A stretch of 64,000 bases of DNA from an uncultured Candidatus Saccharibacteria bacterium (GCA_964546795.1 CAZJKG010000001.1:61690-125689); one strand, 5' to 3'; positions 20,699-63,752 are shown, counted from the stretch's first letter. Program-made: numbers and translations. Notes: generated by a model not told the origin, from the letters alone.

Positions 20699-20738
20699 CT
20701 ATCCAAACCACAATGCGACCGCATTGTGATTTGGATAG
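20699..20738. repeat. palindrome family B, copy 1 (19-bp arms, 1 mismatch)
   Basis: CTATCCAAACCACAATGCG-AC-CGCATTGTGATTTGGATAG. Related copy at 63709-63752. Confidence 0.6.
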
Positions 20739-20775
20739 TGCCCACAATTTGTACTCAAAATGAAATATGGAGCCG

Positions 20776-22344
20776 TTATACTATGGCTTCGTTAAGACGC
20801 GTGATGACAAAATCACGAGGGAGGCCTGCAAGGAACCATCCGGCTTTGGGGCCTGAATCACGGTTCAAGAAAATCCGGTAAATCGCCTGAAAAAGCTCTT
20901 TGGGTTGTATGGGGATTTCGACTTTCAGTTCATGGAGACGCAAATGGAGTTCTTCGCCGGTACGTTCAGATGCCTGAAAAAATTCTGCAAGCATAGCGAG
21001 CGCGTTCTTTTGAGCATCAGAAAGCTCTACCTGCGGCATTTCCTCTTGGAGTTCGTATTTAAATTCTTCAGGCGCATACGTAGTGAGCCAGAACTTTGCA
21101 TACCGCGCGCGCTCCTCAAGCGCCCGCGTTTCGTCTTCCGTAAGGGCGCTACCCTTCGTTCGGGCGGCCTCTTCGTTAAGGGAGAGGTGTGCCATCTGTA
21201 CAATAAAAGCCACCTCCCGAAATCGCATCTGCCAAGGGGCGATAAGCGCCGCGCGCTTCTCAGGAAGTTCGCAAAGTGCGAAGAGGCGCGAATAGTCGTC
21301 CGCCTTCCCTGTACGCACGCCGTCCCCCAGTTCGTCATACCAGTCGTAGAGACGCGGTACCGATTCGCCGGAAGGATCCACATCTATCTGTTCGCGAATA
21401 TCCTTCCCGATAAGTGCAAGACGAAAGATCTCTGCAGGGAAAAGATCGCACATGTCTTTGGCGCTGCTGCCACGACCTTTTGAAGAGGACATTTTCTTCC
21501 CGCCGACAAGGAAGAATTCATATGGTATATCAAAGGGCGGCTCCTGACCGAACAGTTCACGGCACAAGTGATTTGCGACATCGCGTGAGCCGCCCTTTGT
21601 GGAATGGTCTTTGCCGCCACCCTCAATATCGACGCCTTGCGCGATCCACTTCGCCGCCCAATCAACTTTCCAGAAAAGTTTTGTCGTGCCCTTCCATGGC
21701 GTAATACGGCCCGTATGCCCGCAACTCGTTGTGCTATCTGGATTCTTGTCGCAGGCGTAGCCGACGGTCTCGCTGTCGTAGTCGTACGCGTGTGTCGTCA
21801 TCATCTTCCCGCACTTCTCACACACGACCGACACCGGGAGCCATGAGGCGTCCTTCTCGGACCCCGAGACCTCTTTCAAAATACGGCGGACATCATTCGC
21901 TCGTTCAAGTGCGATCTTGATATACGCGTCCATCTTCCCCGATTGGTAGAGTTCGGTCGCCCGATAGTAACTCGGCGTGAATCCGGCTTTTTTGTGCACC
22001 TCCATGAATTCAGCGCCGAAGTACTCTGCATAATTTTTGAAACCCGGTTCAGGACTTGGCACCTTATAGAGCGGCTTCCCGAGATGTTCTCTGAATATTC
22101 CTGCGTCAAGATAGTTCGGTATGGAATCAAACGGGTCAAAGTCGTTAAGCTCAAATCGGAACTCATTCTTGATGCCGTATTCCCCGAGGACTTCCGAAAT
22201 GAGCCCATGGATGGCAACGCCGCGCATCGAGCCCACATGCACCCGGCCGGAAAGCGTCTTTTCGTCCCGAATGATAAAAGTTTTCCCGTCAGTCGGTTTG
22301 CGCGTATCTCGTATCTCGCCGGCTATCCTATCGGCCCACAGCAT
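20776..22344 (-). CDS. lysS: lysyl-tRNA synthetase, class I (archaeal-type)
   Basis: ~520 aa. HVG (HIGH-like) near the N-terminus, KMSSSKG (KMSKS), and the Cys cluster C.KC......C...C typical of class I LysRS. Confidence 0.8.
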   Translation of the reverse strand: MLWADRIAGEIRDTRKPTDGKTFIIRDEKTLSGRVHVGSMRGVAIHGLISEVLGEYGIKNEFRFELNDFDPFDSIPNYLDAGIFREHLGKPLYKVPSPEPGFKNYAEYFGAEFMEVHKKAGFTPSYYRATELYQSGKMDAYIKIALERANDVRRILKEVSGSEKDASWLPVSVVCEKCGKMMTTHAYDYDSETVGYACDKNPDSTTSCGHTGRITPWKGTTKLFWKVDWAAKWIAQGVDIEGGGKDHSTKGGSRDVANHLCRELFGQEPPFDIPYEFFLVGGKKMSSSKGRGSSAKDMCDLFPAEIFRLALIGKDIREQIDVDPSGESVPRLYDWYDELGDGVRTGKADDYSRLFALCELPEKRAALIAPWQMRFREVAFIVQMAHLSLNEEAARTKGSALTEDETRALEERARYAKFWLTTYAPEEFKYELQEEMPQVELSDAQKNALAMLAEFFQASERTGEELHLRLHELKVEIPIQPKELFQAIYRIFLNRDSGPKAGWFLAGLPRDFVITRLNEAIV

Positions 22345-22378
22345 AAGCGTATCGTATCACGCCGTCTTACGCGCACGC

Positions 22379-24064
22379 TTACGCGGATTGCGCTGGAAAT
22401 TCAACGATGAAGGTTGAGCCCTTGTCGGGGCCGTCGGAGGTGCAGGTGATGGTCCCGCCGTGCGCTTCCACGATATTCTTGGCGATATAAAGACCGTAAC
22501 CGGTGGAATGGATATTCGTTTTCTGCGAATCCTTGCCATGACCGCCCTCGGTGAAAAGATTCTTTTTATCTTCATCGCTGATGCCGACGCCGGTATCCGT
22601 AATAGTGAAAACAATTTTTCCTGTCCCGAGCCCGGCCGAGGGAGCATTCTCTTTTTTCAAGGAAGCGGTAATTGTACCTGCAGGCGTATAGTTGACGGCA
22701 TTCTCAATGAGGTTCCGGAACACATTGTCGGCGATTTTTTCCTTATCGCCGCTCAAGGTGTATGGAGCACCGGAATCATCCGCTGAAAATGAGAGAGTTA
22801 GATTCTTTTCTTTTGCCGTCGGCTGCTCTTTCTCTATAACCTCCGCAATGACCGCCTTGAGGTCAAAAGGCGCTTTTGCATACGTTATCGTTCCCTTCTT
22901 TTGGTTGGCAGCAGTGAGGATATCCGTCACCGAACGAACGCCGTCGCGCGATTGTATGAGCGCGCGAGTAACGAACGGCTTCAGCGGCTCCGGTAATGCT
23001 CCAAAATCACCGTCGGAGAGCGAAGCGAATGCCCCGGCATCTTTGGTCAAAAATCCTTTCACTTCGTGCCCGATAAAGTGAATGAGTCCTTCCTGCCGTT
23101 CATTTGTCTGCTCAAGTTCCACGGCGAGTATCTCGATATGCTCGCGCTGCTCGATTTCTCGTTTGACGCTTCGAACCAAAAATATACCGCTCAACGCGAA
23201 TGCTATGAGTGTTACTGCTGTCAAAAGAAAGTCCTCGGGTACCGTACTATAGAACAAGCGTGCGCCAATAAGGAATACAATTACCCAAACCAGTGCTTGT
23301 GTAGCAAGCAGTTTCACATTAAATGCATGGTACTGGACAATCATATAAGTTAGCAGGACCAAAAACAGGAGCATCCCAAGAGGTCCCCATAAGTTGAATT
23401 CATAAACTCGAGTTATTTCTCCATAAAAATTTGAAAGGAAGAATATTCCTAAAAATAACGCTATTCCTGTGGTAAGAACGGTTATCTGATTCTTGAAATG
23501 CTTATCAGTGGCCTTTCGGTAAGCACTGATGCCAAGGATTATCATGAACGCGATTGCTCCTGGCTCAAGAGCATATAATAGTTGCCAGAGTGTCCCATTG
23601 ATACCTTCACAGTTGTACACATCGTAGGATGTGGCGTTGAATGCTGTTGGTGTAACCACAATGACACCGAGTATAAGCATTCCTAACACGATTTTCCCTA
23701 TAAATGGGATGTCTTGTTTGTAAAAAAAAACATACGCAAAATAAAAAATGCTCAAGAAGATGCTTACTTCAAAAATAGCGGTTAACTGCCAAGAAAAGAA
23801 TAGAACTGTATGGTAGGAAGCAACCCACTGAACAAGTATATTTGCTACCCAGAGTACAAACGATAGCGTTAGCACTAAAAGGAGTCTTGCTTGAAGCAAC
23901 TTCTTATTGTTCCAAACCACATAAAAAGCCACTAATAGAGCCGCAATAATAATTGGAATATAAGAATAGAAAAGAAATGGTGGGGCCGTTGAGAAATCAA
24001 AAAGGCCAAGAAAAGACGGTGCCTCCTCCCCGCAAATAATCTGTCCTAGTTCTGTGAATGGCAT
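22379..24064 (-). CDS. sensor histidine kinase with ~7-TM N-terminal domain
   Basis: Multiple N-terminal TM helices, an H-box IGHEVKG, and HATPase_c G-boxes (GYGLYIAK.IVEAHGG). No response regulator adjacent. Confidence 0.75.
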   Translation of the reverse strand: MPFTELGQIICGEEAPSFLGLFDFSTAPPFLFYSYIPIIIAALLVAFYVVWNNKKLLQARLLLVLTLSFVLWVANILVQWVASYHTVLFFSWQLTAIFEVSIFLSIFYFAYVFFYKQDIPFIGKIVLGMLILGVIVVTPTAFNATSYDVYNCEGINGTLWQLLYALEPGAIAFMIILGISAYRKATDKHFKNQITVLTTGIALFLGIFFLSNFYGEITRVYEFNLWGPLGMLLFLVLLTYMIVQYHAFNVKLLATQALVWVIVFLIGARLFYSTVPEDFLLTAVTLIAFALSGIFLVRSVKREIEQREHIEILAVELEQTNERQEGLIHFIGHEVKGFLTKDAGAFASLSDGDFGALPEPLKPFVTRALIQSRDGVRSVTDILTAANQKKGTITYAKAPFDLKAVIAEVIEKEQPTAKEKNLTLSFSADDSGAPYTLSGDKEKIADNVFRNLIENAVNYTPAGTITASLKKENAPSAGLGTGKIVFTITDTGVGISDEDKKNLFTEGGHGKDSQKTNIHSTGYGLYIAKNIVEAHGGTITCTSDGPDKGSTFIVEFPAQSA

Positions 24065-24066
24065 AA

Positions 24067-24207
24067 CTATTCAAGACTTTCTTCGAGTTCGCCTTCTATA
24101 TTAATAACCGTGAATTCCCCTAAGACTACTGTTCTGTAGTAAGTGATAGCGACTGCAATAACCAGTGCGACCAGAATCACGGTAATAAGGGCTCTTTCTT
24201 TACTCAT
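24067..24207 (-). CDS. hypothetical 46-aa membrane peptide
   Basis: MSKERALITVILVALVIAVAITYY... Its stop abuts the kinase start. Confidence 0.2.
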   Translation of the reverse strand: MSKERALITVILVALVIAVAITYYRTVVLGEFTVINIEGELEESLE

Positions 24208-24216
24208 GGTCAATTG

Positions 24217-25149
24217 CTATTCTATCACGCTGGAAACAACAATTGACGATACTGTGAACTTCTTTAAAAAGGAAACTGGTCGATATTTCATCTTTGATTT
24301 TCTCAAATTTTCTATTCCCAAATCCTGTTCAAAATTCCATAAGGTTAATCCCCTGCTGTTTAAATACTTGGCTATCGAGTACAGTAAAAAGTCGTATATT
24401 CCTGTTTTCTGAGTATCAGCTTTCCAGAAATGTCCTATGCAATAGTCATCTGTAAGTATTTCTTCTATGGAAAAAGCAATGGTGTTGGATTCATTCGAGA
24501 TGGTAGTAATGATGAACTTATGATCATTTTTTAATGAATTGAGTAGTCGAGAAAGAGCTATTCTTTCTTTATGAACTTCAAATTCTTTCCCTTTGGCAAT
24601 TTTGTCCGCTCCCCATAAATCAAGAAGATTTAAAATATGATCTTTCAATCCACTTTCGTTTTTATCTTTCACTTCTACATGATACTGCGAATATAGCTCC
24701 GAAAACTTTCTGACGTTTCGTCGCAAATCTTTAAAAGACCCGCCTTCGAGACGACTTAATGATGGGATATCTAAAATATAGTCAAAATTATTGCGGTCCT
24801 CCATAACCAAAAACTCCTTGTTGTTAGAGTCAGGTATCGAGACCTCGGGAATCAATTCTAGTGACTTCAATAGCTCGTGTTTTTCAGCATAGCCAAGTAA
24901 CGATATTATTGTCTCTTCAATTTTGTTACTTCCTAGAAACGAAAGAAACTGTTCACTTGTGGTGTAGTCCGTGAGGCGGGCAACAAGGTTGCCGTTAAGT
25001 TCTGAAACCATGCGCTCGTCACTGGTATCCCACGCCCACAGACTCGTGAAGTTAAAATCTGAATACGGTGGATACTGGCAAGTGTATGACTCGACTGCTT
25101 TCCTATCATTGACCTCAATTTTCTTAAATTCAGGGAACGTGGGAATCAT
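24217..25149 (-). CDS. DUF2156 (MprF C-terminal / LPG_synthase_C-like) domain protein, putative aminoacyl-tRNA-dependent transferase
   Basis: SDFNFTSLWAWD, FDYILD...L.GG.FKDLRRNVRKF, and HFWKAD...GIYDFL......L...G.TLWNFEQDLGIENLRKSK.KY.P match the DUF2156 consensus. The region is AT-rich. Confidence 0.55.
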   Translation of the reverse strand: MIPTFPEFKKIEVNDRKAVESYTCQYPPYSDFNFTSLWAWDTSDERMVSELNGNLVARLTDYTTSEQFLSFLGSNKIEETIISLLGYAEKHELLKSLELIPEVSIPDSNNKEFLVMEDRNNFDYILDIPSLSRLEGGSFKDLRRNVRKFSELYSQYHVEVKDKNESGLKDHILNLLDLWGADKIAKGKEFEVHKERIALSRLLNSLKNDHKFIITTISNESNTIAFSIEEILTDDYCIGHFWKADTQKTGIYDFLLYSIAKYLNSRGLTLWNFEQDLGIENLRKSKMKYRPVSFLKKFTVSSIVVSSVIE

Positions 25150-25153
25150 CGAG

Positions 25154-25546
25154 TTAAACTAGGTTATGCGCTGGATACTTAAGACCTCGTTTGATGAAAT
25201 GGACCTCTACTTCCTCCAGATAGAATTTTTTCTTAAAAAAGTCGACTATAAACTCTTGGTCCATGCCATTTTGGCAGGTGTAAACGTCTGCTGAGACAAA
25301 TCGTCGCTTTGGGAACGTATGAATGCTGATGTGACTTTCTGCGATGATAACGAAGCCACTCCACCCGCCCGAATCTTTGATATGGTTGTCCGGTGCAGGG
25401 ACGACGTGCGGCTTCATGAGCGGACGCATCCGGAGCGCGTCACAAAGCTCGGTAAGAGTAGAGAAAACAGCTTCTTCACTGTCGAGGCGAACCGGATCCC
25501 CGCCATAGCCGTCAATAGTTATATGTTCACCGAAGTGGGCTGCCAT
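25154..25546 (-). CDS. speH: S-adenosylmethionine decarboxylase proenzyme (class 1b, pyruvoyl-dependent)
   Basis: ESHISIHTFPK processing/active-site motif; ~130 aa. Confidence 0.75.
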   Translation of the reverse strand: MAAHFGEHITIDGYGGDPVRLDSEEAVFSTLTELCDALRMRPLMKPHVVPAPDNHIKDSGGWSGFVIIAESHISIHTFPKRRFVSADVYTCQNGMDQEFIVDFFKKKFYLEEVEVHFIKRGLKYPAHNLV

Positions 25547-25626
25547 GCACCTTTATTATATCACCCATTACGTCAACGACAATTTAAAACAAAACCGGCA
25601 ACGATGCGTGTGCATCATTGCCGGCC

Positions 25627-26196
25627 TCAAAACAATTTTACAACCAGGTCATACCCGAGCCAGTTGAGAACTGGAGAAACGTACGGCATGAGCCATCTCC
25701 TGAAAACTTCGATGGCACCAAAGACGAGCGCTCCCCAATACAGATTACTGATCACAATGGCTCCCCAGAAGATCTTCCAGTCTCGTGGGGTCATGGTATG
25801 GTTCTCACTCCCCCGCCGCATATACACGACTGCGATGAACGCGTCGTACTTAATGCAGAGGAAAAGGAAGGCCATAGCGTCGCCACGATCGGCAATTCGC
25901 TGGAAGAACTTTCTGACTTTCCCTGTCGCCTCTCCGTCGCGTACGAGCTTAATCGTCTCAATACCGAGCCAGTCTTGGCCTGTCAGGTCGTAGAACCACA
26001 GGCACCCGAGACAAAGCGCAATTGAGCCGGCGACTGCGTAGAGCCACCCGAGAGCTAGACCATAGACCGCAATAAGATAGGGGTAAACCACGAAGTTGTA
26101 CCCCACTGCCATTGCAGTGTTAGCGGTAAGACCAAGGACTAAGATGCCGATTCGCTTCCAGAAGCGAATCGGGTGATTCGCTTTCTCGAGCGCCAT
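25627..26196 (-). CDS. hypothetical polytopic membrane protein
   Basis: 4-5 predicted TM helices, no motif recognised. Confidence 0.4.
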   Translation of the reverse strand: MALEKANHPIRFWKRIGILVLGLTANTAMAVGYNFVVYPYLIAVYGLALGWLYAVAGSIALCLGCLWFYDLTGQDWLGIETIKLVRDGEATGKVRKFFQRIADRGDAMAFLFLCIKYDAFIAVVYMRRGSENHTMTPRDWKIFWGAIVISNLYWGALVFGAIEVFRRWLMPYVSPVLNWLGYDLVVKLF

Positions 26197-26305
26197 CTGA
26201 CAGCTCCTTTCTGCTCCGGAATGTTAAGAACACCGCATTCAGGAAAGTCCCCGAATGCCACCCGATTGCACTATAGCACACCAAATAAAAAATGCAAGTG
26301 TTATT

Positions 26306-26794
26306 TTATGCTACTTTCTCGATGGTATAGGTCTGTTTGCCGGATGGGGTCTCAAACGTGAACACGTCCCCTTTCTTCTTCCCCATTAATGCGGCTCCCA
26401 AGGGCGAAACATGCGAAAGTTTTTTCACGCGCATATCGGCCTCTTCACTGCCGACGATGACATATTCATGCAAGTCCTCATTTCCCTCTTTCTTAATGGA
26501 TACTTTGGAGCCGAAACTGACTTCATTCTTCTTCTTTCCGTCGGTGATGATCTTCGTGTACTTCACGAGTTCTTCAAGTTTTTTGATGCGCTCCTCGGTC
26601 GCCGCTTGCAGATCGCGCGCCTCTTGATACTCGGCATTTTCCGAGAGGTCGCCGAGTGAACGGGCATACTCAAGATTCTTGGCAATCTCGGTGCGGCGCA
26701 CCGTCTTCAAATTCTCAAGCTCCTTTATCATCTCGTCGAATTTTTCCTGCGAGACGAGTGTGTCTTGTGCATCAGGCATACGTAGTGCGTGCAT
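26306..26794 (-). CDS. greA: transcription elongation factor GreA
   Basis: N-terminal coiled-coil with acidic tip, and a C-terminal FKBP-like domain (GS.VS..........Y.IVGS.EAD....KLS..SP.G.AL.GKK.GD). Confidence 0.85.
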   Translation of the reverse strand: MHALRMPDAQDTLVSQEKFDEMIKELENLKTVRRTEIAKNLEYARSLGDLSENAEYQEARDLQAATEERIKKLEELVKYTKIITDGKKKNEVSFGSKVSIKKEGNEDLHEYVIVGSEEADMRVKKLSHVSPLGAALMGKKKGDVFTFETPSGKQTYTIEKVA

Positions 26795-30682: not shown

Positions 30683-31927
30683 CTATGCAGCGAGGATTTC
30701 CTCTTTCGTTTTCTCCACGGTTTCACCGGTCACTCGATCAACCACTTCAAACGCACCAGTGGCGACAGTGTCTTTGCCGACCACGATGCGCTTTGGGATA
30801 CCGAGAAGATCGCTTTCCGCGAACTTTTCGCCGGCGCGCGCATCGCGGTCATCATAGAGGACTTCAATACCGGCGCGTACCAAACCCTCATAAAGGACAT
30901 CCGCTGCTTGGGCCACGGTGTCCCCGGGCTTCCCAAGACATACGAGGTGCATTGAAAACGGCGCAACTTCTTCCGGCCATACAAGCCCTTTACTGTCGGA
31001 AAGTGTCTCAACGATGATACCCATGAGCCGTGTCGGGCCGATGCCGTAACTTCCCATGACGACCGGTTTGCGCACGCCCGTCTCGTCCGCATACAGGAGG
31101 CCGAGCTGCTGGGAAAAACGTGTGCCGAGATTGAAAATATTTCCCGCTTCAATGGCGCGTTTCTCGATAAGTTTCTTTCTATCGAGCCCGAGTTTTTTGA
31201 GCGTTTCGTCAGTGCACACCTCCTTGTTGACCGCAATACGCTTTTCTTCGTCAATGAAAATCGTATCTTCTCCCGCCTCAGAAACTGTCTGGAATTCCTC
31301 AGAAAATTCGCTGAATATGCCGCCCGATGCGAATGTGGCATAGGTTCGGTCGCCCACACCTGTGCGTTTAAATACGTTTATGTACGCGGTGCGGACTTTG
31401 TCATACTGCGCCCTATGTTCCGCATCGTCTTTTGAGAAAGAATAGAGGTCTTTCATGAGAAATTCCTTGCCGCGCATGATACCGGACTTCGCGCGCAACT
31501 CATTGCGAAATTTATTCTGGAATTGATATGCATAAACTGGTAAGTCGCGATACGAGGAAATGTGTTCCGTCATGATGCGCGTGAGCGGCTCCTCGTGTGT
31601 GATGGCGAGCCCCGTCTCGCCGCCGCTCTTGAACGTCGTCTTGAACCAATTATCCACTTTATCGTCGTCCCAGCGGTCGGTACGCGACCAAAGCTCTTTG
31701 TCCTGGAGCGCGGTCATGACGATCTCCTGACCGCCGATAGCATTCATCTCTTCGCGAACAATCCCAACGATCTTATTAAGAGTGCGCAGGCCGAGCGGGA
31801 GATACGAATACACCCCCGCCATCTCTTTGTGAACGTAGCCGGCGCGGACCAAGAGTTGCGCGTTCTTCGCGACCTCGTCTGCGGGCGCTTCCCGTCGCGC
31901 CTTGGTGAAAAGCTCCGATTGCCTCAT
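30683..31927 (-). CDS. proS: prolyl-tRNA synthetase
   Basis: Class II motifs and a ProRS anticodon-binding C-terminus. ~415 aa form without the bacterial insertion domain. Start taken at the internal ATG (track ORF starts at TTG 31987). Confidence 0.8.
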   Translation of the reverse strand: MRQSELFTKARREAPADEVAKNAQLLVRAGYVHKEMAGVYSYLPLGLRTLNKIVGIVREEMNAIGGQEIVMTALQDKELWSRTDRWDDDKVDNWFKTTFKSGGETGLAITHEEPLTRIMTEHISSYRDLPVYAYQFQNKFRNELRAKSGIMRGKEFLMKDLYSFSKDDAEHRAQYDKVRTAYINVFKRTGVGDRTYATFASGGIFSEFSEEFQTVSEAGEDTIFIDEEKRIAVNKEVCTDETLKKLGLDRKKLIEKRAIEAGNIFNLGTRFSQQLGLLYADETGVRKPVVMGSYGIGPTRLMGIIVETLSDSKGLVWPEEVAPFSMHLVCLGKPGDTVAQAADVLYEGLVRAGIEVLYDDRDARAGEKFAESDLLGIPKRIVVGKDTVATGAFEVVDRVTGETVEKTKEEILAA

Positions 31928-32041
31928 GCTCTGCAGTATACGCCCACCAAACCGGCTCGGCAAAACAAATTTCGCAGCCATCCACAATTTGTCGCTATAG
32001 CGACAAGTTGTGGATGGCTGCCCTTTTGAGTGGATACGCGC

Positions 32042-33175
32042 CTAGTGGACAATCTTGAAGATGTCGTGCGCCGTGACGACGACCATAAGAAGGACAAGAA
32101 AGACGAAGCTGATTGCATTAGCCGCGCGAGTGACGTTTACATCGATGGGGCGGCGGATGACGCTTTCAATGAGCACAAAGAGGAGCCGGCCGCCATCAAG
32201 CGCGGGAATGGGAATGAGATTGATGAGCGCAAGATTGATGGAAATAATCGCCATGATGGAGAGGAGATATTCAAATCCTTGTACCGATGCGGAACCGACG
32301 ACGCCCGCGATGCCGATGGGGCCTGCCACCTGCGAAAGGTCAGCTGAAAATGTGAAGACGCTGTAGAAAAAATGCCAGAGTCCGACTGCGGTGAGTTCGG
32401 TTGCGCTCCAAGTGAGCCGTGTGCCCTCTATAAGAGCCGCGCCGAAAGAGAGCGGTACAACGCCGATGGTAGCCACTTCAACTCCAAGCGCGTAGCGGCT
32501 TGGGTCGGCACTCGCAACGCCCGCTGCGGGCGTTGCGCTAATACTACGAACGTTCTCAGCATGCTTCACCATGAGAATGATTTCATTTCCGCCGCTTTGT
32601 GCAATAAATTCTGAAAAACTTTGAGGGTCCACAGCATGCCAGTCCCCCGCCGCATCATGCGCACTAAGTATTGAGTCGCCCGGTAGAAGTCCTGCAAGAG
32701 CCGCGGGCGAGCCGGGGAGCACGTTCGCGACCGCAAGTTCTGCACTACGAGCGTTTTGAATTTCATCCTGAGACAGCGCACGGGGCGTTCCGATGACGAG
32801 CGCGCCGGTGATAAGCACATAAGCAAAAAGGAGATTCATCGCGACACCGGCAATGAGCACAAACGCCTGAAGGATGCGCGGGCGAGCGGAAAACGAGCGT
32901 GGATCCACCCCTCCGCCTGCCTGCGCAGACAGACCATCCTCGCCGTATATCTTCACGAAACCGCCAAAAGGCAGCCAGTTGAGGGTGTACAGTGTCTCGC
33001 CCTTTTTTGCGATGACGGCCACGCGCGGCGGATAGCCGAGCCCGAATTCATCAACACGCATTCCCGAGAGTTTCGCTGCGACGAAATGTCCCAATTCATG
33101 TACTACGATAAGCGCAACGATAACGACGATAAAAATGAAAATAGTCACGAAGCGTATTATAGCAGAGCAATGAAT
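32042..33175 (-). CDS. rseP: RIP metalloprotease RseP (site-2 protease)
   Basis: HELGHF zinc motif, PDZ domain, LDG motif, multiple TM helices. The true start is unclear: the track ORF reaches 33256 but runs through an inverted-repeat element. Confidence 0.75.
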   Translation of the reverse strand: MHCSAIIRFVTIFIFIVVIVALIVVHELGHFVAAKLSGMRVDEFGLGYPPRVAVIAKKGETLYTLNWLPFGGFVKIYGEDGLSAQAGGGVDPRSFSARPRILQAFVLIAGVAMNLLFAYVLITGALVIGTPRALSQDEIQNARSAELAVANVLPGSPAALAGLLPGDSILSAHDAAGDWHAVDPQSFSEFIAQSGGNEIILMVKHAENVRSISATPAAGVASADPSRYALGVEVATIGVVPLSFGAALIEGTRLTWSATELTAVGLWHFFYSVFTFSADLSQVAGPIGIAGVVGSASVQGFEYLLSIMAIISINLALINLIPIPALDGGRLLFVLIESVIRRPIDVNVTRAANAISFVFLVLLMVVVTAHDIFKIVH

Positions 33176-33866: not shown

Positions 33867-34586
33867 TTATAGTAAATTCTTTGGTATGACGAGTGAGAGA
33901 TGTTCCAGGATCATGCGCACCGGCGCGCTGCGGTCATAGAGATAATTCCGCAAAATTGCAATGTCTGAAAGAAGGTCGGCGATAGCTCCGCTATCGCCGA
34001 CCTTCTTCAGCCGCCGATAAGCCGCGACCTCTACGCCGTTCATTATCGCTATCGCTTCGTCGCGATGTTCCCGCCGTTCCTCCTCATCCTTCCCTGTCGT
34101 AATCTTTTTAATTATTGCGCTGCGCTTTTCCTTACTCGCTTTCATAAACTCTTCCGCTTCCTCCGGAATGTGGGGCATCGGAAGTCCTACATTGGCGTCG
34201 AGTACGCCCACGCGCGATCGTAGTGTCGGCAAGATTCCTCCGAATGTTGGTATCACGAGAAAAATGTAAGTACCAGAAGGCGGCTCTTCAAAAAGTTTCA
34301 GAAGTGCATTCTGTGCCTCGTGATACGCACGGTTCGCGCTGATAATAAGCACCTTATGCTCACCCCTGAAAGGCGCTCCCGCGGCGAACTCCGTTACTCG
34401 CCGTGCATCTTCAACCGAAAGCAGCCCGTAGCGCAAAACGACGATGTCGGGATTCCCTTTTACTTTCATTTTGAGCTCCCGCTCCGCCCACGCCTGCGCT
34501 ATCTCAATCCCCTTTTCTGCTTCCGCCTCAATAACGAACGCATGATGCCGCATGTGTCGATTATAGCCCGCATCTGCTAGTTCCAA
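33867..34586 (-). CDS. holB: DNA polymerase III delta'-like subunit (short form)
   Basis: NALLKLFEEPP motif, and an AAA+ lid-like region. Confidence 0.55.
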   Translation of the reverse strand: MELADAGYNRHMRHHAFVIEAEAEKGIEIAQAWAERELKMKVKGNPDIVVLRYGLLSVEDARRVTEFAAGAPFRGEHKVLIISANRAYHEAQNALLKLFEEPPSGTYIFLVIPTFGGILPTLRSRVGVLDANVGLPMPHIPEEAEEFMKASKEKRSAIIKKITTGKDEEERREHRDEAIAIMNGVEVAAYRRLKKVGDSGAIADLLSDIAILRNYLYDRSAPVRMILEHLSLVIPKNLL

Positions 34587-40360: not shown

Positions 40361-40440
40361 AAACATTCCGGGATAGCTCTCCGCCGGCTGGCGGAGGTAG
40401 AGCGGTTACAATCCGGGGTCGAGAGTTCGTTCGTAAACAT
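40361..40440 (+). other. tRNA-like fragment: duplicated 5' portion (acceptor + D-arm start) of the downstream tRNA
   Basis: AAACATTCCGGGATAGCTC recurs as AAACATATTCCGGGATAGCTC at 40435-40455. No matching 3' acceptor strand. Confidence 0.5.
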
Positions 40441-40442
40441 AT

Positions 40443-40735
40443 TCCGGGATAGCTCAATGGTAGAGCAGCGCCCTGTGGCTTACGCAGCTTTTCAGAGGAA
40501 TCTGGATCGAATAACGAGGTGAATTGCTGGAAACCCTTCGTGGGCAATCAGCAGCCAAGTCCCGCCGTCGGCTGGAAAGGTTCAGAGACTATCCCGAAAG
40601 GGAGTACTGTCCCGATGTAAAGTCGGAATGGGAAGCGCCTCGCACCGAGAAACGGTGATGATATAGTCCATCCCTTTTGGAAACTTAAGGAGCGATGTAA
40701 GGCGTTGGTTGCAGGTTCGAGTCCTGCTCCCGGAG
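40443..40735 (+). tRNA. tRNA (anticodon read as GTT, Asn) interrupted by a ~221-nt group I intron in the anticodon loop
   Basis: Exon 1 (40443-40476) and exon 2 (40698-40735) form a clean cloverleaf: acceptor TCCGGGA/TCCCGGA, D arm GCTC-AATGGTA-GAGC, anticodon stem GCGCC/GGCGT, loop CTGT^TAA, T arm GCAGG-TTCGAGT-CCTGC. Confidence 0.7.
40477..40697 (+). ncRNA. group I self-splicing intron
   Basis: 5' exon ends in U and the intron ends in G. Internal CAGCAGCCAAGTCC, GGTTCAGAGACTA and ATGTAAAGTCGGAATGGG resemble conserved P4/P7 core segments of Tetrahymena/cyanobacterial tRNA group I introns. Too short to encode a homing endonuclease. Confidence 0.65.
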
Positions 40736-40969
40736 CTAGAAAAAGTTAGGCCCTGATGCGGACAGCATTGGGGTCTTACTTTTTCTCTCCGCGGACAGGA
40801 CTCGAAAGCGAGCGCGGGTACCAGTCGAGCACGACTGGTCGCGCGAGGCGGCTCGCGAAATACTGGAGCGACGGCGACAGTATTTTGTGAGAGAGATGCG
40901 TACTCGCGATCCTGCTCCCGGAGCAAAATAACCGTAGGTCGGTTCAAGATGGCACTTTAGGGTGCTATT

Positions 40970-55524: not shown

Positions 55525-55525
55525 T

Positions 55526-57680: not shown

Positions 57681-57698
57681 TTGACAATATATTGTCAA
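57681..57698. promoter_or_regulatory. 18-bp perfect palindrome (operator-like) upstream of the 3D-domain gene
   Basis: TTGACAATATATTGTCAA, with two overlapping TTGACA hexamers. Confidence 0.45.
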
Positions 57699-57726
57699 TA
57701 GCGTCTAGTGCGCAGTATATAAATTG

Positions 57727-57753
57727 AAACCCGGCTGCGTTCGTGCAGCCGGG
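57727..57753 (-). terminator. rho-independent terminator of the PLP-enzyme gene
   Basis: CCCGGCTGC-GTTCG-TGCAGCCGGG with a T-run on the minus strand. Confidence 0.6.
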
Positions 57754-57772
57754 GGTTCAGGGTTGTAGGATT

Positions 57773-58831
57773 TCATCGGATATCACCGCTTTCGGAGAGC
57801 ATCTGCAAGAGATTCAGTGGAGGAATGGTGGGTGAGAATTCCGTCTTGCGATTAAGCGCTCCGAAATACAGCGGCAAATAGGGCCGACAATCATCAGGAC
57901 CGAATACGACGACGTGGATTTTGCCGTCTTCTTTGTCCCTGAATTGCTCCAGTGTTCGGACATCTTTATGCTTCCGGAGAAAACTGAAAGCGCCAGCGAT
58001 ACCGAGACCGAAGCTTGGACCCAAGTGAGGCGTGACATGCGACCATGTCAAGAAACTGAGATAGAACGCCGCATGGCGTGTGCCGAACTGAAGGTCTTTT
58101 TTTTGAAAGAATTTCTCCCAAGGTTGCCGAATGTCTTTTCTGACACTGCTCAAAGTACGGACCCCGGGGACTTCTTGCCCTTCGGCGCACAACACTGGAA
58201 CGACCACGGTACGAAGGCCTCTATCGCGTGCATATTTGGCGAGACCGATACACGTCCCCATAGTACCGGCAGGTAGTGCGAGGATGGATATTTGTTTCGC
58301 TTGCCCAAACAGTTGCGGAGCAAGATGGCAGTAATGTGCCTTCCAATTCCATTCCCCATCGTACTGACACGGATTGTACCAGCCGTCTTTAGCACCGAGC
58401 CGACGAGCATACGCGACTGTGGTTTCGTCAGTGTCGGAAATCAAATGCAGCCCAGTGCGACGCCCAAGAACCCGTATCGCATCGATTTTGTCATGCGGAA
58501 CATCGATGGACATGGCCGCTACGAAACGCACACCGAGTGCGTTGCACACAGTGCTCATAGCATTGCCTGTGTTGCCGCTCGTCGCTTCAATAACGGTCGT
58601 CTTGGGACCAATGAGACCTTTCTTGATACCGTCCATGATACCTTCCCGAGCCATAACCCACTTGCTGTGGGGGGTCTCTCCGGGAACAGCAGCAGCCCTA
58701 AAGACAACACCGTCACTCGCGAATGGATTGAGTTCCGACGGAAGTTCTGCAGAAACGCGTACCAGCCGTAAGCGCGAAGGGTCTGTTTCTTTCCAAAAGG
58801 GATGATTAAGCAGTTCTTGGTTCGCTTTCAC
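57773..58831 (-). CDS. PLP-dependent enzyme, tryptophan-synthase-beta/cysteine-synthase superfamily
   Basis: EATSGNTGNAMSTVC and the Gly-rich ALPAGTMGTCIG loop. Confidence 0.6.
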   Translation of the reverse strand: MKANQELLNHPFWKETDPSRLRLVRVSAELPSELNPFASDGVVFRAAAVPGETPHSKWVMAREGIMDGIKKGLIGPKTTVIEATSGNTGNAMSTVCNALGVRFVAAMSIDVPHDKIDAIRVLGRRTGLHLISDTDETTVAYARRLGAKDGWYNPCQYDGEWNWKAHYCHLAPQLFGQAKQISILALPAGTMGTCIGLAKYARDRGLRTVVVPVLCAEGQEVPGVRTLSSVRKDIRQPWEKFFQKKDLQFGTRHAAFYLSFLTWSHVTPHLGPSFGLGIAGAFSFLRKHKDVRTLEQFRDKEDGKIHVVVFGPDDCRPYLPLYFGALNRKTEFSPTIPPLNLLQMLSESGDIR

Positions 58832-58956
58832 TTTTTGCCTCCTTTCAGAGCGTAGGGGTTAGATAAACAAATTGCTCGCCCGTTAAAAGAGCTTCCGGCC
58901 AGAGTGTACTCCCATTTACTGGTTTCAGCCAGATTGGAACGGCTGTTCTCTCTCTT

Positions 58957-59340
58957 TTGACCCAAATACGCTATACTGCACAAGCATTACACTTATTCAT
59001 CATTATTTTTAGTATTACTATGGCATTTGGATTCGGTTCTCTGTTCAAAAAACAGGATGTCGCACCGGCACAAGATATGCGTCAGGAATATACACAAATG
59101 AAGGAGCAGACCGGACTCAGTATCTCCTATGCACAACGCTCTGACGGATCCATCATTGTTTCGGCCATCTCAGCCGATGCTCCGGCCATCGAGGCGATTT
59201 TCCCTGGCACTGCCACTGATGAGGCACATATCCTGTATACATTGTCAGGTGAATTATTGCGCTCTCGTGCCGCTCTTGGTCAAGAGCATGTGGTAATTCG
59301 CAACACAGTTGAGGGATTATTTGCCTCTTATCGCCGATAA
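58957..59340 (+). CDS. hypothetical protein with N-terminal TM
   Basis: ORF only. Confidence 0.25.
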   Translation: MTQIRYTAQALHLFIIIFSITMAFGFGSLFKKQDVAPAQDMRQEYTQMKEQTGLSISYAQRSDGSIIVSAISADAPAIEAIFPGTATDEAHILYTLSGELLRSRAALGQEHVVIRNTVEGLFASYRR

Positions 59341-59353
59341 TCGATTCGATAAT

Positions 59354-60109
59354 ATGAACACTCCATCCACAAACTCTGCTCAGGGAGAATTTGTCGCTAA
59401 TCCTGGCAAGAAACTCATGATTGATGTTGATGGCACTACGTATCTGCGCCTACCAATCAAGACACGACTCATTACGACTAAAGATACCGATATTCTCTCG
59501 CTTCTTGATGAGTATGCACGGCCCCATCTTGTACTAGGCGACCTTATCTTCATCAGCGAGAAAGCTCTCACGGTAACACAGGGTCGTATTATTAACATGA
59601 GCAATATCAAGACGACGCCATTCGCACGTCTTTTGGCACGTAACGTAGGCAATCGCTACGGCACGAACGATTTCCGCGGCTTTGGGCATGGGACGGATAT
59701 GGCAATGCAACTCTTCCTCGAAGAGGCGGGGTATCTGCGCGTTATATTTGCAGCAGCGGTTTCCGCTCTTACGCGGCCGCTCGGCATTCACGGTCTCTTC
59801 TATCAGATTTGTGGCAAGCGGGCGAAGTCAATTGACTGTCCTATGTCGTTCCTGATCCTTGAATACGCACACTTCGCTAAGCTCGCCCCAAACGACCCAG
59901 ACGGCGCTGCCCGATTGGTCAAGGAACGTTTTGGTCACGAAGCAATTATCCTTGATGCCAACTATCGTGGTGCATTCTCGCTTGGGAAATCAACGTATGC
60001 GATCTCGGAGAAATTTATTCAGAAGCTTTTTAAGGACAATCCTCTTGGTCAGTCCGACGAAATGACGCCTTTCTGTATCGTCCGAAAGGCCGAATTCATG
60101 CATCCTTGA
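59354..60109 (+). CDS. CofE-like (F420-0:gamma-glutamyl ligase family, PF01996-like) protein, divergent
   Basis: LGDLIFISEKALTVTQGR matches the CofE GD..V.SEK......GR motif. Downstream metal-binding motifs are not clearly conserved. Confidence 0.35.
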   Translation: MNTPSTNSAQGEFVANPGKKLMIDVDGTTYLRLPIKTRLITTKDTDILSLLDEYARPHLVLGDLIFISEKALTVTQGRIINMSNIKTTPFARLLARNVGNRYGTNDFRGFGHGTDMAMQLFLEEAGYLRVIFAAAVSALTRPLGIHGLFYQICGKRAKSIDCPMSFLILEYAHFAKLAPNDPDGAARLVKERFGHEAIILDANYRGAFSLGKSTYAISEKFIQKLFKDNPLGQSDEMTPFCIVRKAEFMHP

Positions 60110-60156
60110 TAATAAGACATATTGTCTGTCTGTCGGCGAAAGGATTCTGAGATAGA

Positions 60157-60528
60157 TTAAGGACGCCACCCTTTCTTAATTTTCGTGATTTTATTCTTTT
60201 CGCTCATAAAGATGACGGTCGGACTCATTTTTTCCGCCTCCTTCGCATCAACCCATGCTTCGCCGAGAATAATGACTTTGTCGCCCTTCTGGAAGAACCG
60301 TGCTGGCGGGCCGTTGAGGATGATGTCGCCCCTCCCCTTCTTCCCTTTTACGATATAGGTACGCCAGAGGACAGCGTTACTGACATTCGTTATCTGCACC
60401 ATCTGCCCCGGTAGAAGCCCGGCCGCTTCAAGCAGTGTTTCATCTATCGTGATGGAACCGAGATAATTAAGGTCGGCGTCGGTGACGGTCGCCCGATGCA
60501 GCTTTGCGATACAGACATTTATTAGCAT
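60157..60528 (-). CDS. panD: aspartate 1-decarboxylase
   Basis: MLINVCIAKLHRATVTDADLNYLGSITIDE, with a Gly-Ser processing site and YIV.G.KG.G.I.LNG. Confidence 0.85.
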   Translation of the reverse strand: MLINVCIAKLHRATVTDADLNYLGSITIDETLLEAAGLLPGQMVQITNVSNAVLWRTYIVKGKKGRGDIILNGPPARFFQKGDKVIILGEAWVDAKEAEKMSPTVIFMSEKNKITKIKKGWRP

Positions 60529-60576
60529 ACGGCGAATATATCACGCCTCGATGCGGCGCGCGAGCATTGAATACTT

Positions 60577-62247
60577 TCAATCTGAGCGCATGAGCCGCAC
60601 GAGGCGGATCGTTTCAAAGGAATATCGGCCTCCGAGCGCATGGAAGACGGGTGAGAGGCGATCATCGTTTGTGGCTCTAAGCGCTTCATGAATCTCATCG
60701 GTCGTATCAATCGGGAGCAGGTGTGCGAAATCAGCTCGAACAAGCTTCCCTATCTCCGAGAGTTCTTCCAGATGCTTCACGATGGTCGAAATTGCGAGCG
60801 CGCGCGACTTAGCGACCTCGTGGAGCGTCTTTCCGTCGCGCGCCGCGGCAAGCGTCTCCGCTAGCCGTCCGGGCAAACCTGTAGCATTTAGTTTTGCATT
60901 TCGTTTTTCGGATTTCGCATGTACATCAAACCACGCGCCGCCCATCGCTTTTACGAACTTCTTTTGCATATCGGTCATTTCCGTTATGGGCAGTGTCGCA
61001 AACGCTTCGCGCGCCGCCTCAGAGGCGGCGCGAAAATCCCTATCCTTCTCCAAAATATCTGGATGCACCTCAAGTGCGCGCGCATTCAAACCGGTGAGAT
61101 AGACACCAGAGAGCCGCCGCACTCGAGAAAGCGCGACATATCCCTGTCCATATTCAAACGCTTTTGAGAGGTCTATGATGGCAGCGTCCATGCTCATCCC
61201 CTGGCTTTTGTGCACCGTCATCGCGTAGGCGAGCCGCAACGGTATCTGGGAAACGCTTGCGCGCACTTTCCCCTGTTCCTCCAGCTGCCACTCCATCGGC
61301 TCAGTGGTTATCCTGGGGCCGTTTTTTGTTTTGACGATCGGCGTCCCATCTGCGCCCCAGCCGCTCACGATACCGAGCGTGCCATTGACGAATTTCCCTT
61401 GCGGCGAATTCTTGGTGAACATTACCGCCGCGCCCTCTTTCAATTCCAATGTCTCTGGGGAAAGACATCCGCGTTTAAGCCACTCCACCAACGAATCCTT
61501 CCCAGATGAGCTCATGTGGAACTTCTTTGCCACGCTAGAGAGTTTTGAGAGCTCAGCGGTATTGATGCGGTCCACATCGGCGTTGTGTGAGAAGAGCTTC
61601 GGCGCGTCCAAAGGGAGCTCGGAAGCATCTTTGTGGCGCGTCATAAGCTCTTCGTAATGGAGTTGTTCCACCTGGCCCGCGCGTATCGCCGAGAGCACCC
61701 CGAGAAATTCGGTGTCGTCCTGCCGGTACTGTTCGGTGAGGTAGCAAGTAAACAGGTTCAAGTCGCGCCACACGGCTGATGTATAGGCGAATGAAACCTC
61801 GCGAGCGCGGGAGACCGGCGGCAGCTGAAAGAAATCGCCCACGAGGATGACTGTGAGCCCACCGAATGGCTTATCAACACGCCGCACCTCGCGACAAATG
61901 GCGTCCGCCATCTCGAATGTCGCCGCCGAAAGCATTGAGATTTCTTCTATGATAAGCACTTTTGCTTTCTGTATCCGCCGCGCAATATGTTCCTTGCTTG
62001 CGATGCGGTCCACGTCGGCGCGTGAAAGCGATTCTGCAATACCTATGCCGCTCCAGGAATGGAGCGTCATGCCGGCAACATGCGTCGCTGCGATACCGGT
62101 TGCCGCAGTTACCGATGGCTCAATACCAGACGCGCGCAGCCACTCAATAAATGCATTTACCGTATGCGTCTTGCCGCTCCCGGGCTCGCCGGTAAGAAAT
62201 ACATTCGCACCTGTCTTCAATATCGTAAGCGCCTCGCCTTGGGTCAT
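60577..62247 (-). CDS. PIF1/RecD-family DNA helicase with C-terminal HTH domain
   Basis: Walker A GEPGSGKT, TLHSWSGIG, Walker B VLIIEEISM, and a C-terminal HTH-like segment. Confidence 0.75.
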   Translation of the reverse strand: MTQGEALTILKTGANVFLTGEPGSGKTHTVNAFIEWLRASGIEPSVTAATGIAATHVAGMTLHSWSGIGIAESLSRADVDRIASKEHIARRIQKAKVLIIEEISMLSAATFEMADAICREVRRVDKPFGGLTVILVGDFFQLPPVSRAREVSFAYTSAVWRDLNLFTCYLTEQYRQDDTEFLGVLSAIRAGQVEQLHYEELMTRHKDASELPLDAPKLFSHNADVDRINTAELSKLSSVAKKFHMSSSGKDSLVEWLKRGCLSPETLELKEGAAVMFTKNSPQGKFVNGTLGIVSGWGADGTPIVKTKNGPRITTEPMEWQLEEQGKVRASVSQIPLRLAYAMTVHKSQGMSMDAAIIDLSKAFEYGQGYVALSRVRRLSGVYLTGLNARALEVHPDILEKDRDFRAASEAAREAFATLPITEMTDMQKKFVKAMGGAWFDVHAKSEKRNAKLNATGLPGRLAETLAAARDGKTLHEVAKSRALAISTIVKHLEELSEIGKLVRADFAHLLPIDTTDEIHEALRATNDDRLSPVFHALGGRYSFETIRLVRLMRSD

Positions 62248-62265
62248 GAGAGCGATTATACCTTC

Positions 62266-62673
62266 TCAATAATCAATATGGTATTTCAGAGCGAGTTTTC
62301 TCATATTCTCTGCGACAGACCATTCTCCTTCTGCATCAAAGAGATCGGATTTTTCTAATGGTCCACTGCCGATGATAATGTGGTAGAGGCGATGGCGTGT
62401 TGCCTCGGTAAGACCAAAATGTTCAACAAATGACTTTCGAAATAAATCAAATTCGCCGAAAAGAGGACCGTGAGTAAGTAAATCCTTGTATGCCGCCTTA
62501 TATACTGCACGTACTAATCGCACAATAGGTCCACGTTCTGGGTCGGCTTTGTCCTTCTCTACAAGTTTAAAACCAGCATCATTTTGTTCCCGTTCTAGCT
62601 CTCGCTCCCGACGAATCTTCTCTTCTTCCGATTCTGTCGGTTTTTCCTCGTTTATTGGCGGTTGTTCACTCAT
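62266..62673 (-). CDS. hypothetical protein (135 aa, acidic N-terminus)
   Basis: ORF between the helicase and the PRTase; no motif. Confidence 0.3.
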   Translation of the reverse strand: MSEQPPINEEKPTESEEEKIRRERELEREQNDAGFKLVEKDKADPERGPIVRLVRAVYKAAYKDLLTHGPLFGEFDLFRKSFVEHFGLTEATRHRLYHIIIGSGPLEKSDLFDAEGEWSVAENMRKLALKYHIDY

Positions 62674-62718
62674 AACTTCAGTGTATCATTTGCAACCTCT
62701 TCGTGTGCACTGCACATT

Positions 62719-63345
62719 TCAAACCGTTTTTGCAAGGAGCGCAATGACCTCCGCATCCGTCACCTGTGGAAACTTCTCATAATAAGCCCCGACGGCCCCT
62801 TGATACTCTTCCTCGTTCGTAAGCACAATGACCTCATCCGCTTCCCGCCGGAGCATGGCGGTAACATCCGCTCCCGCGCAAGGGACCGCGACGACCACCT
62901 TCGCTGGTTTCTCCTTGCGAAGCGATGCGAGCGCGGCGCGGATGGTGAGTCCGGTCGCGATACCGTCATCAACGAGAATAGCGGTCTTGCCCGCAGGCGA
63001 TATGCGCGAGCGTCCGGTGAGATACGCTGCGCGCCGGCGCTTCGCTTCCTGACGCTCGCGCTCCACCGCCTCGGCAAGCCATACCTTATCCAGAAACCCT
63101 AACTCTGCTTCATCGCAGATGAGCGGGCCGTCCTCGGTCACCGCGCAAACCGCATATTCGGGATTATGCGGGTGTCCTATCTTCCGCGCTATCGCAAGAT
63201 CAAGCGGAGCGCCAAGAGCTGTCGCGACCTCGTATCCGAGAACAACGCCTCCGCGCGGCAGCGCGTAAACGACTGCGTCTGCTGCGCGATACTTCGCGAG
63301 CGCTTGCGCAAGCTGTCTGCCCGCATCAATGCGGTCTGCGAACAC
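62719..63345 (-). CDS. predicted phosphoribosyltransferase (COG1926-like)
   Basis: PRPP-binding loop ILVDDGIATGLT, ~208 aa. Confidence 0.7.
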   Translation of the reverse strand: MFADRIDAGRQLAQALAKYRAADAVVYALPRGGVVLGYEVATALGAPLDLAIARKIGHPHNPEYAVCAVTEDGPLICDEAELGFLDKVWLAEAVERERQEAKRRRAAYLTGRSRISPAGKTAILVDDGIATGLTIRAALASLRKEKPAKVVVAVPCAGADVTAMLRREADEVIVLTNEEEYQGAVGAYYEKFPQVTDAEVIALLAKTV

Positions 63346-63354
63346 GATACGGTA

Positions 63355-63645
63355 TTAGACGCGATGCATCCGGTTCCAAAGAAGCGCGAAGACGTAACCG
63401 ACAATGCATCCGATAATCGACGTGACGACGATGAGCGTGATGGCCGCAGAGATATCAAACTCTTTGATGACAACTGGTGCGCTAACCATATGCGCCCATA
63501 AGCTGAAGTTAACAAGCGTTTGAGCCCATCCGAGGGCGACAAAGATTGACCAGACAAGATGCAGTCCGCCCACGGTCTTGCCGACGGCGAGTCCGGTCTT
63601 GGCAGGATCAATGTAATGATTCATGAGGATATATATTACTCGGTT
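63355..63645 (-). CDS. hypothetical small membrane protein
   Basis: 2-3 TM helices. Start uncertain: the track ORF extends to 63759 through palindrome B copy 2. Confidence 0.3.
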   Translation of the reverse strand, partial: NRVIYILMNHYIDPAKTGLAVGKTVGGLHLVWSIFVALGWAQTLVNFSLWAHMVSAPVVIKEFDISAAITLIVVTSIIGCIVGYVFALLWNRMHRV

Positions 63646-63708
63646 AATGCGGTAATGATACCGCTTTTCCATCGAGCGCAATGATGACTGGTGCGTAACC
63701 CACCGAAC

Positions 63709-63752
63709 CACTATCCACAATACAATGCGGTCGCATTGTATTGTGGATAGTG
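63709..63752. repeat. palindrome family B, copy 2 (21-bp perfect arms)
   Basis: CACTATCCACAATACAATGCG-GT-CGCATTGTATTGTGGATAGTG. Confidence 0.6.

Follow-up and report, generated by a model that had tools for sequence, protein, structure and literature searches.

A family of 38-bp palindromes in uncultured CPR bacteria, predicted to be operator-type sites of a PaaX-like regulator

Two long palindromes, B1 and B2, in a 64,000-nt stretch of DNA from an uncultured bacterium (GCA_964546795.1, CAZJKG010000001.1:61690-125689, filed as Candidatus Saccharibacteria; the whole stretch is called the window here) belong to a widespread family of 38-bp inverted repeats in uncultured bacteria from the Candidate Phyla Radiation (CPR), and we hold it moderately probable that both are operator-type sites of a PaaX-like regulator. 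The symmetry of the family has been maintained, and in relatives its members have a fixed association with the regulator gene and with promoters; binding by the protein, the sign of the regulation and a function of the window copies are what we infer from this arrangement. Patescibacteria, or CPR bacteria, have tiny genomes with few regulators, and to our knowledge almost nothing is known about their control of transcription. The window belongs to a metagenome contig of 173 kb (ENA ERZ27284378, k139_648605), which comes from a Kaiserbacteria-like CPR bacterium. In the 92 kb of this contig that were read, at least five related sites were present, three in the window and two beyond it (loci and contig segments carry L numbers):

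B1: 20699..20738, unstranded, type B; core TATCCA-N26-TGGATA at 20700-20737, centre GCGACCGC, 57.7 bits with covariance model R1.
B2: 63709..63752, unstranded, type B; core at 63712-63749, centre GCGGTCGC, 61.1 bits with R1.
A1: 31974..32021, unstranded, type A; core CATCCA-N26-TGGATG at 31979-32016, centre GCTATAGC, 60.8 bits with R1.
A2: L107:9035-9074, about 590 nt past the window end, type A; 38 nt from a -10 box.
A3: L232:14128-14165, type A; on the source contig, outside the window.

B1 reads CTATCCAAACCACAATGCG-AC-CGCATTGTGATTTGGATAG, with 19-nt arms, one arm mismatch and a 2-nt centre; B2 reads CACTATCCACAATACAATGCG-GT-CGCATTGTATTGTGGATAGTG, with perfect 21-nt arms. The original prediction, made from the window sequence, had located both palindromes correctly, but its size of about 44 nt applied to B2 only, B1 having 40 nt. 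The mirrored differences that it reported between the copies are real: counted from the dyad centre, positions 13, 11 and 10 are altered in both arms. At positions 13 and 10 each arm has the identical change; at position 11 both arms were changed, but to unlike bases, and the single mismatch of B1 is due to this difference between its arms. The central dinucleotide is inverted between the copies, AC in B1 and GT in B2. The window contains four palindromes whose arms reach 17 nt or more, with no more than one mismatch and a loop of up to 4 nt; none of 60 first-order Markov simulations had any. The shared 16-nt core CAATGCGNNCGCATTG, with up to two mismatches, was not significant alone (2 found, 0.45 expected, 2 reached by 10 of 100 shuffles), nor was the motif CAATGCG-NN-CGCATTG by itself, which occurs in the window in the two copies only. 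The search pattern suggested earlier had gaps of N10 in place of the real N5, and the family is not closed with two copies: a third palindrome is located at 31974-32021 and two more on the same contig beyond the window. A1 has the same outer ATCCACAA-N20-TTGTGGAT frame as the B copies; its interior is different, yet palindromic. An identical 18-nt interior is found in A1, A2 and A3, whose flanks are unrelated. A filter-free scan of the window with covariance model R1 yielded no additional copies, even weak ones.

The family frame is TATCCA-N26-TGGATA (38 bp) with outer arms (C/G)TATCCACAA. Type B has the centre GCG(AC/GT)CGC and type A the centre GCTATAGC; in both, ATCCA and TGGAT are exactly 26 nt apart. 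A set of 44 sites, 42 of them distinct, was compiled by scanning and covariance model from the window, the source contig, relatives and metagenomes. The consensus consists of (C/G)TATCCACAA, six variable self-complementary nucleotides, GC(GRYC or TATA)GC, the six nucleotides mirrored, and TTGTGGATA(G/C). Counting both arms (n = 88), TATC at positions 19-16 was invariant (88/88), followed by A14 (85/88) and C15 (83/88); over the 44 sites CAA at positions 13-11 and C at position 3 were nearly invariant and positions 10-5 variable, and the half-site spacing was constant in 44/44. The two arms stay complementary because the variable positions 10-5 covary. Across the 42 distinct sites, 87.1 % of the arm cells paired, versus 72 % after shuffling and 32-42 % with the partner slid; double-sided changes occupied 128 cells versus 51 expected and affected 14 of the 19 pairs, and the observed values of pairing and double changes were reached by 0 of 500 shuffles. 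The dyad symmetry claimed for two copies is thus maintained in the whole family, with 87 % of arm positions pairing.

An exact search of metagenome contigs for TATCCACAA-N20-TTGTGGATA gave at least 120 matches. Many of the matches listed have palindromic type A or type B interiors and lie in contigs of 45-56 % GC; several type A/B contigs come from 0.1/0.2-µm fractions, from Hainich groundwater samples. The other groups among the matches listed were type C (interior AATGAAGAGTATTCTTCATT, high-GC soil contigs), other palindromic interiors and non-palindromic DnaA-box clusters. Twenty-two matches on viral contigs were rejected as chance, their interiors being all non-palindromic. Type C sites, TATCCACAA-AATGAAGAGTATTCTTCATT-TTGTGGATA, were present in L110, L133, L151, L176 and about 30 more of the listed metagenome loci, at 62-70 % GC and with conserved flanks. 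Six open reading frames (ORFs) next to type C sites, from five loci, had no Pfam match; type C may mark a non-coding locus that is conserved in another phylum.

Several metagenome contigs have a second copy about 650 nt from the first, and the pair encloses a gene for a protein of 194 amino acids (aa). Loci found via the motif had this gene with a site on each side (L111, L134, L116/L125, L144/L195), and so had the control loci fetched by the protein alone, without the motif: L229 (Kaiserbacteria RIFCSPLOWO2_01_FULL_52), L230, L231 and L233 (NCBI assembly GCA_964357415.1). These eight loci represent several Paceibacteria lineages, whose regulator proteins are only 60-70 % identical. In 8/8 loci, 9-11 nt separate the end of the upstream site from a -10 box (TATAAT, TAGGAT, TAAAAT or TAGAAT), and the ATG comes 6-9 nt after that; thus the dyad centre lies near -41, over the -35 region. 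The upstream site is in a divergent intergenic region in five of the eight (L111, L134, L144, L229, L231). The downstream copy precedes rnhB or a gene for a PD-(D/E)XK nuclease, and the distance from site to rnhB -10 box is 13 nt in L134, L111 and L233, 24 nt in L229 and 29 nt in L144. Genes that repeatedly face a site are rnhB (L134, L111, L144, L229, L233), the PD-(D/E)XK nuclease gene (L152, L231, L232) and genes for DUF5671, DUF5676 and SMC proteins.

PaaX is a phenylacetyl-CoA-responsive repressor. The 194-aa protein matched the Cas2-like Pfam domain PaaX_M (E about 1e-19) and, weakly, TIGR02277 PaaX (5.5e-10); a winged helix-turn-helix (wHTH) is indicated by weak profile matches plus secondary structure, and an N-terminal hydrophobic or transmembrane (TM) helix is present. 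In Foldseek the crystal structure of E. coli PaaX came first (8a39, E 1.5e-3 over 130 columns), ahead of Cas2 and the PaaX-like structures 3kfw and 3l09; a sequence search of the PDB with the protein gave no match. Homologues form more than 1000 clusters; those with a source name are of Patescibacteria type, and 'CRISPR-associated endonuclease Cas2' or 'PaaX' is their usual label. L230 and L231 also carry a paralogue, enclosed on both sides by a palindrome variant of its own (GTATCAA-N22-TTGATAC, centre CCTATAGG), in which its -10 box lies; this fits each protein recognising the site next to its own gene. The search for a co-occurring transcription factor, advised at the outset, thus led to a wHTH and PaaX_M gene bracketed by palindromes in every locus examined. 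Of the two functions first proposed, a binding site of a dimeric regulator has gained a candidate factor and a PaaX-like half-site spacing, and a hairpin RNA is the weaker alternative. According to a review, the site of E. coli PaaX is TGATTC(N27)GAATCA and that of Pseudomonas PaaX is similar; PaaX represses its own promoter Px by steric hindrance (PMC9493321). A search of one literature library found no paper linking PaaX with Patescibacteria.

The PaaX-like architecture together with the paralogue-specific palindromes is the reason to read the family as operators of PaaX-like regulators. The regulator would be a small protein conserved across the Paceibacteria, a CPR group, and would combine an N-terminal TM helix with a winged helix and the Cas2-like PaaX_M domain. 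In the dimer, the two winged helices would contact the outer TATCCA/TGGATA half-sites, 26 bp apart, as in E. coli PaaX, and either this symmetric complex itself or a second dimer would read the conserved centre and the symmetric interior. The window copies would act as upstream sites, class-I-like or as roadblocks, not as occluders of a core promoter.

The genes around B1 and B2 are arranged as had been described, and each of the three window copies separates two transcription units (lysS|mraZ-dcw, rseP|proS, ORF|DUF5676-PRTase-PIF1), 34-100 nt upstream of -10 boxes. B1 lies between lysS and mraZ, 37 nt past the stop of the class I lysS (20776) and upstream of mraZ-rsmH-ftsL-ftsI-murF, all genes being on the - strand; it is 36 nt from a candidate -10 box (TATAAG) and about 100 nt from the mraZ box. 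B2, upstream of a small membrane-protein gene, begins 7 nt past the stop of a CarboxypepD_reg-like ORF, also among - strand genes, with 84 nt to the ATG of the two-TM DUF5676 gene and 73 nt to its TAATAT -10 box. A1 is placed between rseP (stop at 32042) and proS, and precedes the proS -10 box TATACT (31940..31935) by 38 nt. The term promoter-proximal is loose for the two B copies: the annotated -10 boxes are 73 nt from B2 and about 100 nt from B1. Half-site-like sequences next to the copies are:

20739..20747, + strand: 9-mer TGCCCACAA, extra half-site-like sequence abutting B1, read from the sequence.
63751..63759, + strand: 9-mer TGTCGACAA, half-site-like, abutting or overlapping the B2 edge, read from the sequence; weak.
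32030..32036, + strand: GTGGATA, possible auxiliary half-site, 21 nt outside the A1 arm.
63763-63770: GCGGATAC, similar to GTGGATA, beside B2 and inside the upstream ORF.

TGCCCACAA is the reverse complement of TTGTGGGCA, which matches TTGTGGATA at 7/9 positions. Such abutting 9-mers are found beside B2 as well as in metagenome members (ttgtcgacacTATCC, ttttggatacTATCC), with tandem pairs in L229; they are putative functional elements. The GTGGATA-like sequences, at only two of four sites, could be chance. The intergenic enrichment of TGGATA-type 6- to 9-mers in the window was weak and due to the palindromes themselves. In the Kaiserbacteria relative L229, two abutting or near-abutting B+A pairs (L229:16001-16088 and 16470-16574) stand in a 700-nt non-coding stretch after smc.

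Several observations weigh against operators of a PaaX-like protein. The window copies are off the core-promoter position, 36-101 nt from -10 boxes, and lie 7-37 nt behind stop codons, the usual place of terminators. No need for a palindromic spacer is known in PaaX operators. In the associated protein a PaaX_C domain was not detected, and the AlphaFold model is confident for the C-terminal half only, with pLDDT below 50 at residues 1-62. No PaaX_M gene was detected by tblastn and hidden Markov models in the window, L107, L108 and L232, that is in the 92 kb of the 173-kb contig, and the source contig carries none of the Kaiserbacteria protein's 120 best homologues. At two syntenic places of the L230/L231 paralogues, reached via the histidyl-tRNA synthetase gene, this contig has solo palindromes only: one of type A (L232:14128-14165) and one of the paralogue-2 type (L232:18114-18149), exactly where L230 and L231 have the PaaX-like genes, as if these had been deleted by recombination between the bracketing copies. 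A look-up of P0020, part of the search for the regulator gene, returned four contigs, L233-L236, none of them from the source sample; in the nearest Kaiserbacteria (L229, L233) the gene is at dnaE-rnhB, a locus outside the 92 kb read. Quasipalindrome template-switch mutation can produce mirrored changes within one genome, and those between B1 and B2 could stem from it and not from selection. Lastly, 80 lysS loci of relatives (1.27 Mb from 79 assemblies, one of which gave two loci) were scanned with covariance model R1, and 78 had no family member. The two exceptions were L015, with a member of type-B-like interior after rseP, at the place of A1, and L005, with a member at a place that has no site in the window. 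B1 lies within about 90 nt of extra intergenic DNA missing in the closest relative, L005. Relatives with adjacent rseP and proS have a gap of 34-70 nt running into a conserved TTGCCG-17-TATACT promoter, and A1 is held in an insertion of about 77 nt relative to them. With these insertions and the absence in relatives, the window copies look recently acquired, not anciently kept in place; for B1 and A1, insertion-like DNA missing in 78 related species looks more like the spread of copies than the slow evolution of binding sites. The exception is B2: metagenome contigs L205 and L160 carry this site too, with the same gene context.

A copy-and-insert palindromic repeat, similar to repetitive extragenic palindromic (REP) elements or miniature inverted-repeat transposable elements, possibly derived from an operator and without regulatory role in the window, would account for the insertions around B1 and A1, for the common interior of A1, A2 and A3 in unrelated flanks and for the scattered copies of the closest relatives (L005:4100 without a counterpart in the window, L015:3668 with another interior at rseP). 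It would also suit the five near-perfect copies in 92 kb here versus two in 1.27 Mb of related lysS loci, and the presence of other palindrome families (ACATAGGAC..GTCCTATGT) in the same clade. We regard this as unlikely: among the called genes of the 92 kb there is no transposase, REP-associated tyrosine transposase (RAYT) or Y1_Tnp gene, the motif and its position at the regulator gene are kept across lineages with 60-70 % identical proteins, and the B2 site is kept in place in related contigs. REP elements carry a conserved GTAG or CGTC tetranucleotide at one palindrome end (PMC3733652); the ends of the present sites are (C/G)TATCC...GGATA(G/C), without such a tag and without target-site duplication. 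In another, CPR-specific reading the palindromes would be more than passive operators: cruciform or hairpin sites recognised by the Cas2-like protein, at the borders of single-gene units. Such a unit might be looped out or insulated, or recombination between the two copies around it might excise it, as in a cassette or insulator system. Units of this kind would be the two PaaX-like paralogues and, on the source contig, a 57-aa ORF with the 182-aa gene that A2 and B2 enclose; the solo sites and the abutting B+A pairs would represent empty junctions. This idea arises from the solo sites at the paralogue places, the B+A pairs of L229, the insertion-like B1 and A1 and the fully palindromic interior that is otherwise unexplained, and we consider it improbable.

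Two further explanations do without the associated gene. As 3' untranslated RNA hairpins, the sites would be terminators lacking a U-tract, RNase III sites or 3' stabilisers. All window copies begin 7-51 nt past the stop of a co-directional gene, and most relatives have a canonical GC-rich hairpin with a T-run right after lysS, L006, L008, L011, L013, L016 and L050 among them; the window has no such hairpin, only B1, which would replace this lysS terminator. The hairpins would be very stable (-29.5 to -39.6 kcal/mol, z scores -7 to -10), with 18-24-bp stems of a size suited to RNase III, and because of this stability a dual role is possible if they are transcribed. However, no U-tract or T-run follows B1, B2 or A1, a scan of 20400-20900 found 0 terminator-like sites, and promoter and terminator scans gave nothing. 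Of 31 resolved contexts at least five lie between divergent genes, a setting in which no transcript is expected to end; other copies are in core promoters upstream of the start site. The sequence of the stem base and of the centre is conserved, which a terminator does not need, and the symmetry continues through the centre, which a loop does not need. The sense strand had no G.U bias at non-Watson-Crick positions (4 versus 2, an uninformative count), and Rfam 15 gave no match for the sites at gathering score, the window yielding only a group I intron and one tRNA. On this evidence an RNA role has a small chance. A role as inverted pairs of DnaA boxes, where DnaA would act as a transcription factor or be titrated, is very unlikely. 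The outer arm TATCCACA matches the DnaA box TTATCCACA at 8/9 positions, B1 has TATCCAAA, which resembles R3 of E. coli, the same 9-mers also drew oriC-like DnaA-box clusters among the metagenome matches listed, and the neighbours are often replication or repair genes (dnaE, dnaG, rnhB, SMC). Yet the box's initial T is disfavoured (at position 20, 47 of 88 arms have C, 32 have G and 5 have T), the window has no switch in GC skew, and DnaA would explain neither the invariant 26-bp spacing nor the conserved centre, the covarying interior and the paralogue variant TATCAA.

Further features were noted around the sites. Upstream of mraZ, 20562-20640 (- strand) holds a GATATACT -10 box amid a series of AGTGG(G/T) repeats, with TGTGGATAAC before them, for which relatives have GGGGATAAC; the arrangement is kept across Kaiserbacteria-like relatives and would seem to be the dcw promoter's array of MraZ operators. 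The perfect DnaA-box-like 9-mer TGTGGATAA at 20629-20637 was discarded as a DnaA box, since it belongs to a conserved part of this mraZ promoter region, where relatives carry GGGGATAAC; probably it is the first MraZ box and has nothing to do with the palindromes. Many genes have a -10 box just 6-9 nt before the ATG, without Shine-Dalgarno spacing (31927-31945, 63622-63640, L107:9110-9130), which suggests that leaderless or near-leaderless mRNAs are the norm in the lineage. Directly downstream of A2, about 590-900 nt past the window end, L107:9127-9300 holds an uncalled, very basic 57-aa ORF (MATNPPPGPGRRGQVKKRDQVYSSQNKRWTKRGADKKF...) that has no Pfam match; its ATG comes 7 nt after a TAGGAT -10 box. 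Another perfect palindrome with 18-nt arms (AAGAAGGTCGGCGATAGC tcc GCTATCGCCGACCTTCTT) is located at 33969-34007, inside a 239-aa ORF (33867-34586, - strand) and not intergenic. A group I intron (RF00028, Rfam, 81.6 bits) at 40480-40690, in the region 40430-40740 (+ strand), splits a tRNA-like gene (TCCGGGATAGCTCAATGGTAGAGCAGCGCCCTGTGGCT ... GGTTCGAGTCCTGCTCCCGGAGC) uncalled by ARAGORN; a second tRNA-like sequence with an insert is just upstream of the intron, at about 40366-40430. Adjacent genes for 96 aa and 76 aa at 1077-1597, the second with a weak HicA_toxin match, are probably a HicAB toxin-antitoxin module. A second palindrome family, ATGTAGGAC/GTCCTACAT or ACATAGGAC/GTCCTATGT, recurs in the intergenic DNA of several related species:

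Second palindrome family: L015:3715-3735; L025:2670-2760; L027:1798-1852; L030:1568-1604 and 2287-2323; L039:12210-12240.

As operators of a PaaX-like regulator, the palindromes would tie a 38-bp site defined by its sequence to one of the most conserved small predicted DNA-binding proteins of the CPR. The protein is routinely mis-annotated as 'Cas2', a systematic annotation error that is corrected here. The candidate regulon comprises rnhB, the PD-(D/E)XK nuclease, SMC and membrane DUF genes, and in the window the dcw/mraZ, proS and PIF1-helicase units; it becomes directly testable and would be a first handle on gene regulation in CPR bacteria. The family is also a case where operator, hairpin-forming and possibly mobile properties meet.

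Among known systems, intrinsic terminators share with the sites a stable hairpin soon after the stop codon, B1 being at the place of the relatives' lysS terminator, but unlike them the sites have no U-tract, their stem of 18-24 bp is AT-rich, their sequence is conserved and they occur in divergent promoter regions. To DnaA boxes (TTATCCACA) the outer arm has 8/9 identity; unlike these, the sites disfavour the first base, are strictly paired in inverted orientation at 26 bp, and have a centre that is conserved and an interior that covaries. With REP elements and bacterial interspersed mosaic elements the family has in common that extragenic palindromes of 35-40 nt, often just past stop codons, are present or absent between close relatives, and with the REP/RAYT system that one gene is flanked by two copies; it is unlike the former in lacking a GTAG/CGTC tag, in its low copy number so far and in a fixed register with -10 boxes, and the flanked gene encodes a wHTH/PaaX_M protein, not a Y1 transposase. 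Like the operators of E. coli and Pseudomonas PaaX, the sites consist of two inverted 6-bp half-sites about 26-27 bp apart, about 38-39 bp in total, and overlap the regulator's own promoter in the loci of relatives, though the window copies are not so placed; the associated protein combines a predicted wHTH with PaaX_M and has PaaX 8a39 as top structural match. They are unlike PaaX operators in their half-site sequence, in the palindromic nature of the whole spacer with its conserved centre and in the location of sites on both sides of the gene, and the protein is unlike PaaX in its length of about 194 aa, its N-terminal TM helix, the apparent lack of PaaX_C and the lack of paa catabolic genes nearby. 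What would be new is the reuse of a PaaX-type operator architecture by a short CPR-specific PaaX_M protein, with an operator that is fully palindromic and brackets the regulator gene.

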